From the sequence record MN882349.1: a stretch of DNA of 64,000 nucleotides; one strand, written 5' to 3'. Below are positions 6,020-19,925 of this stretch, piece after piece. This stretch comes from Escherichia phage Ec_Makalu_003. The position numbers were made by a program, and so were the translations under genes. A model generated the notes under the pieces. It saw nothing but the letters and a program-made list of their open reading frames with translations, did no database searches and was not told the origin of the DNA. Every line of letters begins with the position of its first letter. Position 1 is the stretch's first letter.

Positions 6020-9000
6020 TTAAAGCGCCTAGTGTAACTAGCTTGACAATAGAAAAATTGTCTGCTAATCAGGCGTATATCACATGGGATGACGTAGGCG
6101 AAAACTTCTTTTATTTTGTAGAGTTAGCCGAAACCAGAACACGAGACGGGGAGATCATCCCCGTCGATGAGTTAAGCTGGGTAAACCTGGGATATACTGC
6201 CGATCAAAACTGGTTTGAGGATAAAAACCTTTTTCCAGAATATTATTACAAGTTTCGTGTAGCAGTAGCCGCAGAAGGATTCGAACAAAGTAAATGGATT
6301 GAAACCGAAGAGTTTCAGACATTTAAGACAAACGCATATAATTTTTCTATGATGCGAGAGTTCAACCTTGCAAACGAGTTTATAAAGGAAAAATTTACAT
6401 ACGATAATAGAGAGTATGTCAAGTTTAATACTGACCTGATTCAAGCATCATTGATGAAGGAAGATTTTGTCTTTAGTCCTGAATATGCAAACATGACCAA
6501 TATCTCAAACTACATTGTAGTTGATGAGAACTTTCATGAAATACAGGACCACATAGAAAAAGTTTGTACTGATATAAACCGCACGATGTTAGCGGAAATG
6601 AACGGTGTTTTGTACCTTTTCGAACGGTTCCAGCCGATCGTGAAAGTGTCAAATGATAAAGGTCAATCATGGAAAGCATACAAGGCTTTTAATGACCGTG
6701 TAGGCAATCCGGTTTCCCGTACATGCGTTTATCAGTCTAAAACCACTACTTACGTTTTAGGATATGACCGAATCTTTTACGGACGACAAGCGAGCGATAC
6801 TAGATGGAGCGCGGACGATGTTCGATTTAGTGATGATACGATCACTTTTGCAAAGGTTGGTGACGAAAACGACTTAGGGTTTGATGTTGAGGTCTTTGGT
6901 GTATTTTCCAGATTAACAGGTGATACCACAAAATACGCCGAAGCTATGGCGTGCAGTGATGACTATTTGTGGGTTGGTGCTAAGGATGTTATTCGCCGGA
7001 TTCGTCTTAAGAATACTCCAGTTGATACCGTTCAGGGTTCGCCTACATTTGGGGAAAAGATATTTGACCCTGATATTATCCGAGTAACAGGAAATGACAA
7101 AGCTGTTATTCAGAAAATGGATGTTGTTGACGGAAAATTACTGGTATTTGTTACGGGTGAAGTTAAACAGCGTTATCAAGATCCGACCAAACCAGAAAAC
7201 GTTGTACCGTCAGATGATGCTGGTGTATACTTAATAGGGAGTGATGGTCTGTCTTTTCAGAGAGTATTTGGCAACACTCCGCAGGAAAGGGAATATATTC
7301 AGCACGGGTTCAGTAATATGTCAACCAATGGTGATGAGGTGTTCATAAGCCATTATAATCATCACTTCGAAAGCATTTTACCTGATCCAGAAACTGCCGC
7401 AAAATATGAATTAGGCGAAGCTGTGAAATATTCTCAGGAGCCAACTTATCTAACTGATAAGAAAATACATCAAACGACTTTCAGAGCAAGTTATGATGAT
7501 TTGCGTATTTGGGAGTTAGGACCGCAAGCGTATTATAATGAGGCTGATTATACATGGATGCGTCGAAACGGTGTCCGTGTGTGGATCACAAATGATAATC
7601 GCCCGTTGGTTGTTTATCCAGAGGTTATCTATACCCAAGAAGTTGATACATCTGGCATTCTTGACCAAAATAGGGTCAACCGAGAAGTTTATGATAAAGG
7701 GACCGTGACCTGTTATCTTAACAATGTTAAATTTGAAGGGTTCAAACAATATGCATCCGGTGTAATGTTCCATAAAAACACGGGAGAGATCATTGGATTC
7801 TATCAATTTAATTATCGTGTTCGTGACCAAGTTGGTGTATATTGGAAACCTACAAATGTAGCATTTGTTGCTGAATTACAAAATCAGGTTCGAGAGGTTC
7901 CCTGGGTTCCTGTTCATTATGACAGAGAGCAAGACCCAGATTTACGGCCTTTACTGAATAAGATGACCCCGGATAGCTTTTTGCTTGAGAACGAAAATTT
8001 CAGAAAATTCTCTGAATATTATCTGCAATTCTTAAGTGATGGTTCAGGAACATATTATAATAAACTAAAAAATCTGATTAAAAACAAATACCCACGCGAG
8101 CAAGATGCATATGAGTATCTTTGGTCAGAGATGAACAAACGAAACATCTATGCAGATAAAAACAAGCGAGATGCGGTAGTAAGATTCTTCGAATCCCGCA
8201 AATCAGATTTTTATTCCACTAAGGGCGTGGAGGCTTCTTATAAGTTCTTGTTTAAGTTACTTTATAATGAAGATGTGGAAATTGAGGTTGAATCGCAAGC
8301 CGGACTAGAGTATGATATTGTTGTTAGTTCAACGAACATTGACGAGGATATCGTAGGTCGCACGATCTATACTCCAACCGGACGGGCTAACGTGACGTAT
8401 CTTGAAAGGGAATATGAAGGTGGTCGCCTACGCTGGCGAGTAACCATTCATAACCTGATCGGGCGGTTCGAAGAAGGTCAAGTGATCAAATCAGAGAAAA
8501 CAGCGTTTGAAGGGATGATCCTTGTTGGTGTACGTGGTAAAGAGTTGTTGAGTAGTTCAATCGACTATATCAACCGCTCACGAAGCCAATACACCATGAA
8601 GATTAAAAGTGCATTACCAGTTTCGCGCTATGCAAATGATGTAATGCGATTCGTTCATCCTGTCGGCTTTGGGTTTATCGGTGTTACCCTGCTTACGATG
8701 TTCATTAACAGCGGGTTGAGCATGAAGCACACCGAGACTATAATTCAATCTCTGAAAAATTATAAGTTTGACAGCGGATTGCCTAGCGTGTATCCTGATC
8801 GGGTGGCAGACCTTGACGTTGACGGAAACATTAAGAAAGACCCGCTTACCGGAAAAGCATTATATTTGACTTCACCTTTAATCGGTGAAGAATTTCCGGT
8901 TCCTCCTGAATATGATCAGGAGAACAGCGAATTGTTCCACGGACTTAAAGCAAGCGAACGAAGATTTGCAATGAGTCCACTGTTTGACCAGTCGGCGGTA

Positions 9001-12543: not shown

Positions 12544-14342
12544 AACAATTAATTAATATCGGTAACGTTGTTGATGACGGTACAGGTGATTATCTAAGAA
12601 AAGGTGGTCAAAAGATTAATGACAACTTTTCTGAACTTTATACTAAGCTGGGGGATGGTGATATCCCTCATGCATCCGGCGCGTGGAAAACTCACACACA
12701 ACCAGTATTAAAACCAAATTTTGGTGATGCATGGGCGATTAATACAACGAACAACGCTGTTTCTGTTGAATTGCCTAAAGGAAGCGCGAGTGATTATAAT
12801 AAAACAATTAAACTTCGTGATGTTTGGCGCTCATGGGCTGCACATAACGTAACGTTGAAGCCAGCACAAGGTGATACCATTAAGGGATCTCCAATCGACC
12901 GTGAGTTGTATAAAGATTTCATGGATGTTGAATTGGTTTATTGTGCGCCTGGACGTTGGGAATATGTCGAAAATAAACGAGTAGATACTATCACCACTTC
13001 CGATTTAAGCACAGTTGCCAAAGAAGTTTATATTGCAACCGAAGGACAAACAGACTTCCCTAATGTTTTTGGTTCCAATACTTACAATATTCGAAATGTT
13101 GAAGTGTATTATCGCGGTAACTTGCTTTATTATGGCAAGGATTTAACCGATGATTCTAACTATGGTTCAATCGGTGAAAACGGTGATATTGTTCCGCTGG
13201 ACGGTAAAAGCATTAAATTACGCTTCCCTTGTTCGGCTGGTGATACCATTCAAATCATAACTTATATGGACGGTATCGCATCCTTCCGGTCAAGCTATAT
13301 TACTCATACAATCCGCGTTTATGAAACAGGAATGACCACTTTGGAATCCATCCCCGGTGAAGTTTGGGTTGGTGAACTAGCTAATAAGAAAGAATTTACT
13401 AATGCTGAATTAGGCGTAAGTAAGCGAGATCTTATTAATCCAAATTCATTTGAATTGCTGATCAACGGCACACAAATGATTAAAGCGGGTGATGCGGATT
13501 TACCTTCCTTTATTTGTGAAGGCGCTGACGGTGAAACGGAAGAAACCTGCGTACTTGCTGGCGGTCAATGGGTGGAATCTGGGGAAGATTATTCATTGAT
13601 GTTCGACGAAAACAGCGTGGTGACTGGTATTAAATTATCTAAAGCACTAGATAACCGAGATACTATCACAATTCGCTGGTTTAATAATGATATCGGAACA
13701 TTAATGGAATGGGACGGTGTAGGCGGTATTAAAGAAAAAGCAGATAAAATCTATCTTAATAACGAAGATGAAGTTACTCTGACAAATCGAATTGAATATA
13801 CCGATTTCCAAAATCCAAGCCAAGCAACTAAACGCCCAATGGAAGATTATACAGGTCGTGTGATGGATATCTATTCCATATTCGATATTTTCTATCCTAT
13901 AGGCACAATTTATGAAAATGCGCATAACCCAGCTAACCCAGCGACATATATGGGATTTGGTACATGGGTACGTTATGCAGAAAAAGAATTTTTAGTTGGT
14001 TGGTCTTCTGACGCAAGCGATCAAAACTTCGCACTAAACAACAACGATCTTGATACACATGGTCAACCTACACACACCGCAGGTGGTAACGGTGGTGATG
14101 TTGCATACCAGATCAAGAAAAATATGATTCCTGAATTACAGAGCGACGTTCGGGTTCTTGTAAAAGATGATAACGGAAATATTATCATTGGTGGTTGTCA
14201 GGTAGACCCTGATGCAGTAGGTCCAGCGTTTACCAAATATCGAGAAGATAATGTTAAAGTTAATCAGGGAAATACCGACCCATCAATGATTGGTATTCTT
14301 CCTCCATACAGAACTGTCTATCGTTGGCTAAGGGTAGGTTAA
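12540..14342 (+). CDS. 10: baseplate wedge subunit and tail pin gp10
   Basis: 600 aa (T4 gp10 602 aa); overlaps gene 9 stop. Confidence 0.8.
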   Translation: MKQLINIGNVVDDGTGDYLRKGGQKINDNFSELYTKLGDGDIPHASGAWKTHTQPVLKPNFGDAWAINTTNNAVSVELPKGSASDYNKTIKLRDVWRSWAAHNVTLKPAQGDTIKGSPIDRELYKDFMDVELVYCAPGRWEYVENKRVDTITTSDLSTVAKEVYIATEGQTDFPNVFGSNTYNIRNVEVYYRGNLLYYGKDLTDDSNYGSIGENGDIVPLDGKSIKLRFPCSAGDTIQIITYMDGIASFRSSYITHTIRVYETGMTTLESIPGEVWVGELANKKEFTNAELGVSKRDLINPNSFELLINGTQMIKAGDADLPSFICEGADGETEETCVLAGGQWVESGEDYSLMFDENSVVTGIKLSKALDNRDTITIRWFNNDIGTLMEWDGVGGIKEKADKIYLNNEDEVTLTNRIEYTDFQNPSQATKRPMEDYTGRVMDIYSIFDIFYPIGTIYENAHNPANPATYMGFGTWVRYAEKEFLVGWSSDASDQNFALNNNDLDTHGQPTHTAGGNGGDVAYQIKKNMIPELQSDVRVLVKDDNGNIIIGGCQVDPDAVGPAFTKYREDNVKVNQGNTDPSMIGILPPYRTVYRWLRVG

Positions 14343-14343
14343 T

Positions 14344-14988
14344 ATGATTTCGAAAACACGTTCAAAAGCTAGTGTATTTTCCAGCGATGCGGCGTTTATT
14401 TCATACGATCCAGGATCGAAAGATCCTGTTATCGGTGGTTCTCGTCCAATTGGTGGCGTTAATGTCGATCAATCAAGAAAAGGTTCCTATGTAAGCAACG
14501 TTCAATCTGCAATTGATGACCTTTATTCATTGTCAATGATCCGAATTGGTGATGTGTTGGTTACAACCAACTCAACTCCACCACAAGCCGCAGGACAGAT
14601 TGAAACTCTGTCATTTTCTGGTTCTGTTAACAATCAGCATAATCCAGACGCAAACAAAGTATTAATTGATGTTTTGGGTTATCCATTTATTGTTGATGTT
14701 GGTTCTTCCGGCGTTTCTCTATGTGAGAAAGTAACGGAAAAATTTACCGAACTAATGAATAAAAACATTATGTTCAAAGAAGTAAAAAGAAAAGGAAGTA
14801 GCAACGACCAATTAGAAATTCATTATATCGATTCTCTTGAACACCCACCAACCGATATTAACAAGTACGGAATTACAATCACAGGAAATGTTGATTCCCC
14901 TTCCCGTGTTGGTTATGGTTCATGGTCTCGCATGGGTACAGAAGAGAAATTTGGAACTACCCTATATTATTTCAAACGTATTGCATAA
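14344..14988 (+). CDS. 11: baseplate wedge subunit and tail pin gp11
   Basis: 214 aa (T4 gp11 219 aa); gene order. Confidence 0.8.
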   Translation: MISKTRSKASVFSSDAAFISYDPGSKDPVIGGSRPIGGVNVDQSRKGSYVSNVQSAIDDLYSLSMIRIGDVLVTTNSTPPQAAGQIETLSFSGSVNNQHNPDANKVLIDVLGYPFIVDVGSSGVSLCEKVTEKFTELMNKNIMFKEVKRKGSSNDQLEIHYIDSLEHPPTDINKYGITITGNVDSPSRVGYGSWSRMGTEEKFGTTLYYFKRIA

Positions 14989-14999
14989 GGTGATGTATA

Positions 15000-16400
15000 A
15001 TGTCAAACAATACTATTAACCATGTAAAAGACGATGCTCAATACGTCAAGTTTAACCCTGTAAATGATTGGCCTCAAAGCATTACCAACGTACAAGCGGC
15101 TTTAGCCGCTATTAATGGCTTTGCCGTAAATGGATTACCGGACGCTACGGAAGATACAGCCGGGATCGCTGCAATCGCAACTCAGGAAGAAGTAAACGAC
15201 GGGGTAGTAGACAATAAGATCGTGACTCCAAAAACACTGGCTGTTAAAATGTCACGTCCAGATGCTACAAAAGAAGTAAAAGGCATTACCCGATTTGCCA
15301 CAATGGAAGAATCGCTGCAAGAGAGCAACGAGAACATGGCAATCGGTCCAGACACACTAAACCATTACTTCACCACTAAAAAGGCGTCAGAGAGCGTTCA
15401 GGGGACTATTAAGATATGTTCTCTTGAGGCGGCAAAGATTGGCAGTGATGACACAATGGCAGTAACACCGAAAAAGATGCACACTGCCATTGCACAGATT
15501 GTACCGGGATTAATTCCAGATCAAAACACAGCAACCGAAAGCGCACAGGGTTTAGTTCAGTTAGCAACCAGTGCGCAGGTTTTACAAGGCCAGATTCGAG
15601 AAGGTTTTGCAATTAGTCCTTATGCATTTGCAAATGCTCGCGCCAATGAGAATCAGGCGGGTACTGTTAAGATCGCCAGTCAGTCACAGATGAATGCTGG
15701 TTCAGATGATACTGTAGTTGTTTCTGCTAAGAAGTTTGCAAGCACTAAGGCAACAACGTCTCAATACGGTATTGTTAAACTACGAGACACCGTAGGAAGT
15801 GAGGCTAATGCTGCACTATCAGCAAATGCTAAGGTTCTTCCTAGCACTGGCGGTACGGTAAGCGGAAACGTCTATAAAGGTTCAAACTCAGACGGCAACC
15901 AGTTTGTTACTAAAAATGAATTAGCGAATCACGCAATGCCAATTGGTGGTATTATCCTTTCTGGATTCAATGCCGACCGAGGTGACTTTCTGATCTGTAA
16001 TGGTCGTTCACTGAATAAAAATCAATATCCGCAATTATTTTCTGCGATTGGTTATACCTTTGGTGGTTCAGGTGACAATTTTAACATTCCTGATATGCGC
16101 GGTTTAGTTGCTCGTGGTTGCGATCATGGAAGAAACCTTGATCCAGGTCGTCGATTTGGTTCTTATCAAGAAGACGCAATGCAGAGAATTACTGGTAAAT
16201 TCCCTGTAGCTGACCGCTGGCGCGGTTGGTATGGTGGCGCATTTACTGCACAGCGCGGTCAATGGAGCACGAACTATAAAAATGGTGGGGGTGATGATTG
16301 GGGTTCTACTGTTAACTTTGACTCAGGAAGATCCGTAAGAACGGCTAACGAGACTCGCGTCAAGAGTCTGGCATTAAACTATATCATAAGGGTGCGCTAA
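15000..16400 (+). CDS. 12: short tail fiber protein gp12
   Basis: 466 aa; internal fiber repeats (IGSDDTMAVTPKKM / AGSDDTVVVSAKKF); position between gene 11 and wac. Confidence 0.8.
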   Translation: MSNNTINHVKDDAQYVKFNPVNDWPQSITNVQAALAAINGFAVNGLPDATEDTAGIAAIATQEEVNDGVVDNKIVTPKTLAVKMSRPDATKEVKGITRFATMEESLQESNENMAIGPDTLNHYFTTKKASESVQGTIKICSLEAAKIGSDDTMAVTPKKMHTAIAQIVPGLIPDQNTATESAQGLVQLATSAQVLQGQIREGFAISPYAFANARANENQAGTVKIASQSQMNAGSDDTVVVSAKKFASTKATTSQYGIVKLRDTVGSEANAALSANAKVLPSTGGTVSGNVYKGSNSDGNQFVTKNELANHAMPIGGIILSGFNADRGDFLICNGRSLNKNQYPQLFSAIGYTFGGSGDNFNIPDMRGLVARGCDHGRNLDPGRRFGSYQEDAMQRITGKFPVADRWRGWYGGAFTAQRGQWSTNYKNGGGDDWGSTVNFDSGRSVRTANETRVKSLALNYIIRVR

Positions 16401-18169
16401 TGATTGAACAATTAAACATCCACGAGATCCCACATGTTGACGGTGTACCAAGCGAAGGACAGCACCGTATTAATTGGATCAAGAATGGCGAATGTTTAAG
16501 CGCAGCAACGACACAGACTGGCAATGACGGGACGCTTAACCGCGCCCCGGTTGCAATTCAAGAAAACGTTGCACGCGTAAACGAAAACGCAAAATCAACC
16601 GTCTCTAAAGTTAACGAGGTTGTAACGGCGGTTAACGATATTAAAACAACTTTAGGGGTAATTTCTGACGGAAGTATCATTGATGTGGTTAACCAGACTG
16701 TCGCAAAAGTTGAATCCGTCGAAGAGAACTTAGGAGAAACAGCAAGAACTCTGCAAACAACGGTAGACGCTGTATCAGAACTTAACATCAAGATTGGTGA
16801 TCGCCCCGCTGCCGATCCGAGCACAAGAACAATCTATGATGACATTTCTTTCATCAAACAAGAAATGGGTTCTTATCCTAACTTTAATATCAATGGTTCC
16901 CCTGATGCTGGCAGTTCCGGTTCTGGCATCAAATACCGAGTTATTCAGAATACCGCAGCATTAAATGACCACGGTCGCCGAATCGTTCAGCTTGAAAACG
17001 ACTGGCAAGATTCTGACGTAGGCGAGTTAACAAGACAAGTTAACAAAATGCGCAGTGAGATCGGCGACACGTCTCTTGCCACACAAGAAAATGTGTATGT
17101 TCGTCTCCGCACCAACGCAAGAAACATTGCTAACCTATCAAACGAAGTTCTAGAAGTCAAGAAAGCAATTTTGTTTGATTCAATCCCTGATATCGGGACT
17201 AAAGTCACTACGCTGGGCACTAATTATGAACTTCTAAACAATGATGTTAATGGTGTAGATTCCGGTATTCGTCCTCGTCTTCTGGCTGTCGAGAATAAGA
17301 TCGGAACGCCTCAATCGGCTGGAAGCATTGATTATCGATTAACCAACACAGAGCGAGAATTTTTAGATCTTAAACAGGTTGTTGGTGTAAGCGGTGCTGA
17401 CGGTTTGCGCGGTGAAGTTGTTCGACTTTCCAATGAGATTGGCACTGACAGCGATCGACATACTCTAGCCGGACGTATTAAAGTTGTAGAAAACACTCAG
17501 GGTCGGTTAGAAGCAAGCGTACAGGACATGGAGCAGATTGTAGGTGATCGCGAATCAGGTTTGACCGCTGGCGTCATTAAACTATCAAGTGATATCTATG
17601 GTGATGATGGTTCAGAAGATCCATTTACTCAGAAAGGCGTGATTAAAATCGTCAAAGAGCTACAAACATCTAACGGAAACAAAGTAGATGATGTACCTGA
17701 TGACGGTTTCCATTATCTGCGTAAGCGCGGAGAATGGGTGCAAGTTGCATATGCTGCTGGATCATTTAAAAATACCGCAGATATTACGGTTGAACTTGAC
17801 GAACAGGATGTTTATAAACAGATTCCACTTAACGACATGGCGGCAGAAGTTAATGCTCGTCAAATGGTGAAAAGTGAATCTGTTGTCACCGTTCAGGACA
17901 AAGGTTTATTCCGTTGTGTATTCCGTTGTGCTGTACAAGCTCAACATAATGCAACATTCACTGTTGCGATTTTCAAAAATGGACAGATGGTATATGAAGC
18001 GAAAAATGGTCATTACGGCACAGACGAATTGATCAGCTATTCTACCAGTGCTTTCCTAAATATTGAAAAGGGAGATCAGATTAACATCCGTATTAAGGGT
18101 GTATCTGCCGAAGCAGTAGCACAGCCAGTACAAATTAAAGAGTTCCTCTTTGGGATTTCTCCGGTATAA
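16400..18169 (+). CDS. wac: fibritin (whisker) Wac with foldon-like segment and C-terminal extension
   Basis: 589 aa; N-terminus PHVDGVPSEGQHRINWIKNGE matches recalled T4 fibritin; foldon-like DGFHYLRKRGEWVQV followed by about 130 extra residues. Confidence 0.85.
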   Translation: MIEQLNIHEIPHVDGVPSEGQHRINWIKNGECLSAATTQTGNDGTLNRAPVAIQENVARVNENAKSTVSKVNEVVTAVNDIKTTLGVISDGSIIDVVNQTVAKVESVEENLGETARTLQTTVDAVSELNIKIGDRPAADPSTRTIYDDISFIKQEMGSYPNFNINGSPDAGSSGSGIKYRVIQNTAALNDHGRRIVQLENDWQDSDVGELTRQVNKMRSEIGDTSLATQENVYVRLRTNARNIANLSNEVLEVKKAILFDSIPDIGTKVTTLGTNYELLNNDVNGVDSGIRPRLLAVENKIGTPQSAGSIDYRLTNTEREFLDLKQVVGVSGADGLRGEVVRLSNEIGTDSDRHTLAGRIKVVENTQGRLEASVQDMEQIVGDRESGLTAGVIKLSSDIYGDDGSEDPFTQKGVIKIVKELQTSNGNKVDDVPDDGFHYLRKRGEWVQVAYAAGSFKNTADITVELDEQDVYKQIPLNDMAAEVNARQMVKSESVVTVQDKGLFRCVFRCAVQAQHNATFTVAIFKNGQMVYEAKNGHYGTDELISYSTSAFLNIEKGDQINIRIKGVSAEAVAQPVQIKEFLFGISPV

Positions 18170-18175
18170 GAAATT

Positions 18176-18199
18176 AAAGGGGCGTTAAGCCCCTTTTTC
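18176..18199 (+). terminator. rho-independent terminator after wac
   Basis: Hairpin AAAGGGGCGTTAAGCCCCTTT followed by a T-run. Confidence 0.7.
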
Positions 18200-18215
18200 G
18201 TTTATAGGTGATATT

Positions 18216-19148
18216 ATGTCAGGATATGTAACCAATAACCCAAGAGAATTAAAAGACGCTATTCTGCGTCGTTTAGGCGCACCAGTGATTAACGTAGAAG
18301 TAACAGAAGACCAGATTTACGATTGTATTCAGAGAGCACTAGAACTCTATGGGGAATATCATTTCGATGGTGTGAATAAAGGATATAAAGTATTTCGTGT
18401 TAGCGCAGAGCAAGCACAACACGGGGTATTTGATTTAAGCGATTCTGGGGTATTCGCAGTAACTAAAATTATTCGAACAAACGTAGGTAGCGCGGCTACG
18501 ATGGATGGCACTGCCGTTTATCCGTGGTTTACCGACTTTCTGTTGGGTTTAGCGGGTGTAAATGGCGGTCTAGGATCTGGATGTAGTAAATTTTATGGTC
18601 CAAATGCAATGGGCGGTGATCTAGGATATTTCGAACAGCTTATGAGCTATCGAGCCACTATGCAAAATATGCTCAATCCGCTGCCAGATTATTGGTATAA
18701 CAGCGCAAACGGACAACTTAAGATAACAGGAAACTTCCGAGAAGGTGATCTCATTGTTGTTGAATTATATGTTAAAAGCTATGTAGACGTTCCTGATATG
18801 ATCGGCGCGGTTGCTGGTTATGCTCATGCGGGAGGATGTTCTACCGCTGGAGGAATTAGTGCCGTTTATGATAATCCAACTGCTGGTTTAAGCGGGATTG
18901 TTGCTGGCATGGGACCGATCAGTGAGAACAAGCAGGGCGCATATAATAACCGTTGGGTTAAAGACATGGCAACCGCTTTCACTAAGGAGGTGTGGGGGTC
19001 CATCATGGCTAAACATCAAGGTCTGCAATTACCCGGCGGTGTCACTGTTGATGGTATCCGAATCATTGAAGAAGCACGCGCCGACATTGAGAAATTGCGA
19101 CAAGAACTAGAATTATTAGATCCTCCGTTCGGCATCCTCATGATTTGA
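18216..19148 (+). CDS. 13: neck protein gp13
   Basis: 310 aa (T4 gp13 309 aa); SD AGGTGA; gene order. Confidence 0.8.
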
Positions 19149-19184
19149 TTTATTGGGGGAGTATTCCCCCATTTGGAGTAACAT

Positions 19185-19925
19185 ATGTTTAACAACACTC
19201 TTTTTGCTCGCCTTGAATCGCAAAAGGATTATGAGAATACACGACAAACCGAGATTCTCAATCCTTATGTGAACTTCAATAGGCATACTAATACCCAGAC
19301 GTTAGCCGACGTTATGGTCGCTGAAGCTATTCAGATGCGAGGTGTAGAATTATATTACATCCCTCGTGAATTTGTCAAACCAGACATGATCTTTGGCGAG
19401 GATGTTCAAAGCAAATTTACTAAAGCATGGAAATTTGCGGCTTATATTAACTCATTTGATGGGTATGAAGGAGCGGGGAATTTCTTCTCTAGTTTCGGTT
19501 ATCAAGCCAATGATGAACTAACTTTTACGGTTAACCCCAACCTATTCAAGCATCAAGTAGATGATCAAGAGCCAAAATCAGGTGACTTGATTTATATTCC
19601 AATGAGTAATGATTTATTTGAAATTAATTACGTTGAGCCATATCAGCCGTTTTTTCAGGCTGGCAAAAATGCTATGCGTAAAATTATTGCAGAGAAATTC
19701 GTGTATAGCGGTGAGGAATTGCGACCAGAATTACAACGCAACGAGGGAATTAATGTTGATGAGTTTGCGGATCTGGATCTTGCACCGATCACTAATCTGG
19801 ACGGGTTAACAGATATCAACTTAGATCAGTACAAAGAAGATAAGCAATTCAGAAGCGAAGGACAAGATTTTATTGATCCGTTTGATCCTATTAATGGCAA
19901 GGGTTCACCTTTCGCCGATTTTTGA
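19185..19925 (+). CDS. 14: neck protein gp14
   Basis: 246 aa (T4 gp14 256 aa); SD GGAGTA; gene order. Confidence 0.8.

Follow-up and report, generated by a model that had tools for sequence, protein, structure and literature searches.

The open reading frame (ORF) at 16400..18169 on the plus strand of the window (the whole 64,000-nucleotide (nt) stretch of Escherichia phage Ec_Makalu_003, record MN882349.1) is the wac gene of an RB49-like Krischvirus and encodes its fibritin, gpwac, the protein of the neck whiskers. We propose a model for this RB49-type fibritin, to which we give a probability of about 0.6, in which a T4-type foldon is retained in the interior of the chain and is followed by a C1q/TNF-like knob of 138 residues that would nucleate the trimer and dock with the tail fibre. 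The initial annotation of this DNA had described a fibritin with an internal foldon-like segment and a long C-terminal extension, and its identification of the protein is borne out by the identity to RB49 wac, by PHROG 1056 and by homology to T4 fibritin. It had not recognised that this exact architecture is that of the RB49 type of fibritin already described. The parts of the gene are as follows.

16400..18169, plus strand: wac (fibritin, neck whisker) ORF, 589 amino acids (aa) plus stop
16400..16549, plus strand: N-terminal domain, aa 1-50, conserved, with homology to the domain by which T4 fibritin attaches to the neck (phmmer; Krischvirus identity)
16550..17677, plus strand: shaft of the fibre, aa 51-426, a homolog of the segmented coiled coil in T4 (alignment to T4)
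17678..17752, plus strand: internal foldon homolog, aa 427-451, NKVDDVPDDGFHYLRKRGEWVQVAY (Pfam, key residues, shuffles, hairpin predicted by AlphaFold2 (AF2))
17753..18166, plus strand: C-terminal head, aa 452-589, a short linker followed by a beta jelly roll predicted to be C1q/TNF/BclA-like with 10 strands

A foldon in the interior of the fibritin

Over all 1770 nt the gene is 98.9% identical to RB49 wac, and it is 99.7% identical to that of Ec_Makalu_001; the records matching the wac DNA, 57 in number, are all Krischvirus-type coliphages. The PHROG 1056 profile, 'fibritin neck whisker', matches aa 1-581 with E=8.7e-187. By phmmer, residues 5-431 of T4 fibritin (PDB 2bsg) align continuously to aa 6-426 (E=1.7e-49), and the N-terminal constructs of T4 fibritin, 1ox3 and 2ibl, align to aa 7-83 (E ~1e-15). 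The shaft is assigned by this homology to the T4 coiled coil, not by computed heptad periodicity, and the N-terminal domain is 82-100% identical in aa sequence among Krischviruses.

Pfam Fibritin_C (PF07921) covers aa 368-451 with E=2.6e-30 and 104.9 bits (cut-off 21), extending to position 92 of the 93 in the profile. Scored with BLOSUM62 and without gaps, the 27-aa T4 foldon finds its best match in the whole protein at aa 427-453, where it reaches 51, as compared with 9.2 +/- 5.0 in shuffles, none of which attained 51 in 5000 trials. Furthermore, an alignment of fibritins from Krischvirus, from a Serratia phage, from a metagenome and from T4 shows no variation at the positions equivalent to T4 P463, Y469, R471 and W476, and in the AF2 model aa 437-442 and 445-451 form a beta-hairpin, albeit with a low predicted local distance difference test (pLDDT) score. 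As an alignment of the foldon by itself to T4 is weak (10/27 identical; phmmer domain i-Evalue 84), the case for it rests on context, profile coverage and key residues. Its similarity to the T4 unit goes well beyond chance, and on this basis aa 427-451 is a genuine T4-type foldon homolog.

The internal placement of the foldon is thereby upheld, with 138 residues following aa 451. The segment that had been quoted for it, DGFHYLRKRGEWVQV, is found at aa 435-449 (nt 17702-17746), and a second string quoted from the extension, GLFRCVFRCAVQAQHNATFTVAIFKNGQMVY, is likewise present and begins at aa 502. The feature had been placed from 17695, which is 1 nt out of frame, codon 433 beginning at 17696; and while the C-terminal extension is indeed long, it exceeds the roughly 130 aa that had been given, as 140 residues come after DGFHYLRKRGEWVQV.

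Predicted fold of the C-terminal head

Modelled alone by AF2, the head (aa 452-589) forms a compact all-beta structure of ten strands, with a pLDDT of 76.7 for the best of five models and a predicted template-modelling (pTM) score of 0.73, and foldon and head together (aa 427-589) also give an all-beta model (pLDDT 65.9, pTM 0.62). All models are of monomers, at an alignment depth of 5 sequences. A Foldseek search of PDB returned C1QL3, 4-1BBL, Cbln1, the NC1 domains of collagen VIII and X, and adiponectin, and a search of BFVD gave 221 matches at E<1e-3, many of them phage proteins bearing the names 'C1q domain' or 'collagen triple helix repeat'. Among the closest structural neighbours are heads of phage fibres and receptor-binding proteins (RBPs), namely the cyanophage A-1(L) short tail fibre CBD (8ke9), the cyanophage A4 tail fibre (9k09), the RBP of lactococcal phage 1358 (4l92) and the receptor-binding domain (RBD) of TM4 gp23 (9n6a), as well as the TNF-like lectin 9ib6. 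In addition, Pfam BclA_C (PF18573) is weakly matched independently by 6 of 7 divergent heads. Sequence and profile searches of PDB with the head gave no match, and no Gly-X-Y repeats of a collagen-like stalk, a trait of the C1q and BclA subfamilies only, are visible in the translation before the head, where coiled coil and foldon are found instead. The head is therefore predicted, from its models, to be a C1q/TNF-like jelly roll, a ten-strand beta-sandwich, and its place after a trimeric coiled coil and a foldon suggests that it forms a homotrimeric knob on the three-fold axis.

Known C-terminal knobs on trimeric fibres provide a close likeness to this arrangement: the BclA C-terminal domain and the C1q/TNF heads (1wck, 3twi, 9h38, 4oul, 5h48, 1o91, 1gr3) nucleate trimerisation of their stalks. 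The stalk that precedes the head here is an alpha-helical coiled coil plus foldon and not a collagen-like triple helix; moreover, the sequence similarity to these families lies below Pfam thresholds, and the trimer is in our case one that we infer. The related heads of cyanophages A4 and A-1(L), 4l92, 9n6a and PRD1 P5 (1yq5) bind host receptors from tail fibres or spikes, whereas the present head sits on neck whiskers. T4 fibritin (2bsg, 1aa0, 1avy) shares a homologous N-terminal domain, shaft and foldon with its P, Y, R and W, but ends at residue 487, a few residues past the foldon, where the Krischvirus protein carries its head of 138 more residues. A constant N-terminus and shaft with a variable C-terminal module are also seen in the fibritins with a double foldon (JS98), Ig-like domains (RB43/KP15) or a large domain accompanied by a chaperone gene (Aeh1); the fold of their modules differs from that of the present head, and here no chaperone gene stands downstream, g13 following directly.

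The BFVD matches also contain A0A1J0MHA5, a protein of 159 aa from Klebsiella phage KPV15, which matches the foldon-plus-head model over its full length (template-modelling (TM) scores 0.62/0.63, 23% identity). To judge by the models, this short protein could represent a relative of the fibritin head that stands alone, in a phage of KP15/RB43-like kind with Ig-like domains in its own fibritin.

Distribution and selection of the head

The head is present in 57 Krischvirus genomes of the phage collection at 74-100% aa identity, and again, at 24-32% identity to the Krischvirus heads, in Serratia phages WSPA, 4S, 92A1, PS2, Muldoon and SP1 and in Cronobacter phage VP8, always at the C-terminus of an annotated fibritin. 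When 1.84 billion representatives were searched exhaustively by phmmer for the head, only two real clusters emerged, the RB49 type and a metagenomic fibritin of 591 aa (P0006); the remaining seven matches, to NHL, cadherin or other repeat proteins, were rejected as spurious, and a profile search of a database of 5.8 billion proteins added nothing further. By sequence, the head domain thus appears confined to fibritins, those of Krischvirus, of the Serratia/Cronobacter phage group and of one metagenomic lineage. Homologs at 27-33% identity keep both its length and its position, and the full 589-aa frame is kept in all 57 Krischvirus genes where examined. The ratio of nonsynonymous to synonymous substitution rates (dN/dS) in the head is 0.16-0.19, and the head is therefore under purifying selection; against JSE its ratio is about 2-fold that of the shaft (0.163 and 0.083). 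Together with the head-only model and its retention in distant phages, this supports the reading of the extension as a folded, conserved distal domain rather than an unstructured tail. The comparison with RB49-like fibritins that had been suggested places the head as homologous to the C-terminal module of RB49 wac, to which it is 95.7% identical in aa sequence.

Of the candidates for a natural separation of head and fibritin, P0003 and P0001 did not hold. A seemingly foldon-terminated variant, P0003, was rejected, as its metagenomic contig L002 is a fold-back chimera with an Illumina adapter end: past the foldon codons, 1623-1888 is the reverse complement of the contig itself, ending in the adapter AGATCGGAAGAGC..., and the minus strand encodes the beginning of the head. 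A stand-alone head protein of 110 aa, P0001, was likewise rejected as a fragment called after a scaffold gap inside wac, and the other such candidate of 110 aa, P0002, sits on a contig of 927 bp. The gap in question, 100 N with a duplicated 55-nt flank in the metagenome scaffold L003, is equivalent to about 17764 of the window and is what led the gene caller to the false protein P0001. It falls exactly in the zone of allele crossovers after the foldon described below, and the assembly may have broken at this point because different head alleles were present together.

Two head alleles and their reassortment

Two head alleles, RB49-type and JSE-type, with about 75% aa identity between them, account for the 57 Krischvirus genomes: the head of the window is 95.7% identical to that of RB49 and 75% to that of JSE, and the head of ECD7 is 93% identical to that of JSE. 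From g10 through the foldon, ECD7 and Makalu_002 are 99-100% identical to the window; after the foldon the nt identity falls to 74-80% over the rest of wac, where both carry JSE-type heads, and returns to 98-99% in g13. Mismatch maps place the 5' crossover between 17762 and 17820 in ECD7 and between 17762 and 17869 in Makalu_002, just 3' of the foldon in both and differing between the two.

17762..17869, plus strand: zone of 5' recombination crossovers between RB49-type and JSE-type head alleles (mismatch maps)

These patterns of identity indicate that head alleles recombine among Krischviruses. JSE itself shows 50-84% nt identity to window positions 13900-19900 from g10 through wac, 95-99% over most of g13 and 81-100% in g14, and the mosaic boundary in the comparison with JSE (L014), at the 3' end of wac, is a sharp one. 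The 3' edge of the exchange cannot be placed because lineages of JSE type and RB49 type are near-identical in g13 (95-99%), and a description of the head as a discrete recombination cassette, for which the 5' crossovers are clear, was downgraded for that reason.

Homing endonuclease genes lie nearby in some of these phages. Between g13 and g14 a SegC-like gene is found in ECD7 and a SegB-like gene in Makalu_002, with none at this place in the window (~19145-19185), and JSE has a homing endonuclease gene between g14 and g15.

L012, 5291-5875: seg-type gene
L013, 5278-6093: seg-type gene
L014 (JSE), 6042-6797: homing endonuclease gene

Co-conversion with these genes could have contributed to the mosaic. 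They lie about 1 kb downstream in ECD7 and Makalu_002, and the intervening g13 is uninformative. The 5' part of g14 in ECD7 (window 19200-19500), which is 74-78% identical to the window, looks like such a co-conversion tract. The published view is that the fibritin C-terminus no longer moves (PMC3797505); reassortment of heads within one type adds nuance to that view and does not contradict it.

A model for the foldon and head, and its alternatives

The C-termini of fibritins have been sorted into eight types, one of them the 'RB49 type' (Letarov & Krisch 2013, PMC3797505, citing Letarov et al. 2005), and an RB49-type fibritin with an expanded C-terminal domain is therefore already known. The fibritin of RB49 itself differs from the present one by allelic differences only, being essentially the same gene with the same length, position between g12 and g13 and expanded C-terminal domain, and it has been reported biochemically to be a parallel homotrimer (PMC3797505). 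The small foldon motif alone folds trimers only in the T4 and JS98 fibritins and not in RB49, whose expanded C-terminal domain is needed for folding and trimerisation, this being its sole published function (PMC3797505). The RB49-like phages have been said to possess a 'C-terminal moiety unrelated to T4 Wac' and possibly a different tail-fibre conformation (PMC9569957). No fold has been given for the domain in the account of RB49 (PMC3797505), and we found none in the literature searched, which did not include Letarov et al. 2005; here a T4-type foldon is retained and the part after it is predicted to be C1q/TNF-like. The fold assignment alone may be new, and both it and the finding of recombination immediately behind the foldon add only a little to what is known.

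In our model, the three heads would pack round the three-fold axis of the fibre as a knob at the tip of the whisker, as they do in all C1q/TNF/BclA domains. Knob and foldon would bring the three chains into register, upon which the coiled coil may zip from the C-terminus to the N-terminus, mirroring the way in which the gC1q/NC1 and BclA C-terminal domains nucleate triple-stranded stalks. Head plus foldon as a C-terminal trimerisation nucleus is the best-supported mechanism, drawing on the literature and on the analogy of fold to gC1q, NC1 and BclA. The knob would most likely also supply, in RB49-type phages, the docking surface for the long tail fibre near its knee, which would help fibre attachment and keep the fibres retracted. 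This role of the head as a docking tip is suggested by T4, in which the C-terminal whisker tip touches the long tail fibre just below the knee, aids its attachment and keeps the fibres retracted (PMC3797505).

Several results weigh against this model. The other four head-only models have pLDDT values of 58-63, that of the foldon-plus-head model stays at 65.9, and alignments of 5 sequences lie behind them; since the models are monomeric, the packing of the heads as a trimer is something that we infer. BclA_C is matched at 22.3 bits (cut-off 38) and C1q (PF00386) at 16.5 bits (cut-off 23.7), both below the gathering threshold, and we therefore speak of similarity at the level of the fold and file the head in neither family.

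With respect to docking, Letarov and co-workers are said to have argued in 2005 that a novel C-terminus in wac is accompanied by a novel C-terminus in gp36. At a deep level such an association of the head family with a long gp36 holds, for in Serratia phages WSPA and 92A1 a head of this family occurs together with a long gp36 of RB49 type in full length (in RB49, L015 30157-31647, 496 aa, the full length of which is common to WSPA and 92A1 at 31-33% identity). Within Krischvirus, covariation of the head allele with gp36 was rejected, and here too the evidence counts against our model: in ECD7, JK32, PHB13, 011D4 and JEP8, which combine a JSE-type head with an RB49-type background, gp36 is 99.6-99.8% identical to that of RB49, and in ECD7 gp34 to gp36 are RB49-type throughout, the C-terminus of gp36 included. 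The proximal part of gp37 (L015 32240-32839, gp37 aa 175-374) forms at least 5 identity classes among Krischviruses with respect to RB49 (100, 81-86, 76-78, 61-65 and 41-45%); ECD7 had suggested that this segment varies with the head allele, an idea rejected by the pattern over the 57 genomes, in which it does not track the allele. Covariation within the genus thus gave no support for docking to the tail fibre.

The head may instead, or besides, serve as an accessory adhesin or as a sensor of the environment: the tips of the six whiskers would bind a ligand of the host surface or the environment, such as a glycan, for reversible pre-adsorption or condition-dependent control of infectivity. This reading, which goes back to the initial annotation, which is compatible with the model and which we consider possible but rather improbable, is made plausible by the predicted C1q/TNF-like fold, common in receptor-binding heads of phage fibres such as the structural neighbours named above (8ke9, 9k09, 4l92, 9n6a and the lectin 9ib6). 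Two head alleles with 75% aa identity, reassorted onto shafts otherwise 99-100% identical and independent of the tail-fibre alleles tested, would suit it, as would the roughly doubled dN/dS of the head relative to the shaft against JSE; adhesin-like roles have also been proposed for the Ig-like domains of RB43 and the C-terminus of Aeh1 (Letarov & Krisch, PMC3797505). However, only two allele classes occur in the 57 genomes, from phages of various E. coli and Shigella hosts, many fewer than in the receptor-binding region of gp37, selection on the head is clearly purifying, the type of fibritin goes with the phylogeny of the phage rather than with its host (PMC3797505), a ligand-binding motif was not identified, and recombination in this region, which has homing endonuclease genes on its flanks, may have produced the apparent reassortment as a side effect. 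A 2026 receptor-prediction study found k-mers specific for lipopolysaccharide (LPS) sugars in gp12 and the neighbouring fibritin gene of Straboviridae (bioRxiv 10.64898/2026.04.02.716166), and the signal in the fibritin gene probably reflects linkage to gp12. The stronger proposal that the knob is itself a ligand-binding module, for example a lectin for host surface polysaccharides or a sensor of the environment, whose two alleles are reassorted by recombination close behind the foldon for differing adsorption behaviour, we hold to be unlikely; were it true, the neck whiskers would be a second, swappable organelle of host or environment recognition in a T4-type phage.

That the folding of RB49 fibritin requires the expanded C-terminal domain (PMC3797505) would also fit an intramolecular chaperone, autocleaved like the Peptidase_S74 domains of endosialidases and some tail fibres and absent from the mature whisker, and the BFVD neighbours include one with the annotation of L-shaped tail fibre protein; chaperone domains of this kind can occur in that class. 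Such a reading is highly improbable because there is no Peptidase_S74 signal: even with E values of up to 1 Pfam gave no match to it or to another chaperone domain, the prediction is of a stable knob of C1q/TNF type and not of the S74 fold, and no cleavage-site motif was seen. Finally, the extension might be no real domain at all: it could be a tail without structure, or could have arisen as an artefact, for example where an ancestral stop codon behind the foldon is read through. This notion had in its favour the seeming end of P0003 right after the foldon, which, as shown above, comes from a chimeric contig whose minus strand encodes the start of the head. The maintenance of the 589-aa frame in the 57 Krischvirus genes where examined with dN/dS well below 1, the conserved length and position in homologs at 27-33% identity and the compact all-beta model with its 10 beta-strands in effect refute it.

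The model of a trimer-nucleating and fibre-docking knob would resolve the 'alien' C-terminal moiety of these phages into two parts, a foldon that has been retained and a knob predicted to be C1q/TNF-like. Heads of C1q type are well known to nucleate trimers, and the predicted knob gives a structural hypothesis for the dependence of RB49 fibritin folding on its C-terminal region. The head also becomes a defined module on which docking to the tail fibre can be weighed against ligand binding, and the tandem of foldon and C1q-like head could interest protein engineers who use the foldon as a trimerisation tag.

Genomic context of wac

The start ATG of wac overlaps the stop codon of g12 (TAATG). 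The gene is flanked by ORFs for a gp12-like short tail fibre (15000..16400) and a gp13-like neck protein (18216..19148), and the order g12-wac-g13 agrees with the annotation of RB49 and its relatives. Directly after the wac stop codon lies a strong hairpin with a stem of 8 bp, 5 of them G-C pairs, and a T-run.

18176..18204, plus strand: terminator-like hairpin AAAGGGGC-GTTAA-GCCCCTTT plus T-run, between wac and g13 (consensus scan)

In phage G2248 the annotation has a putative terminator at this same site.

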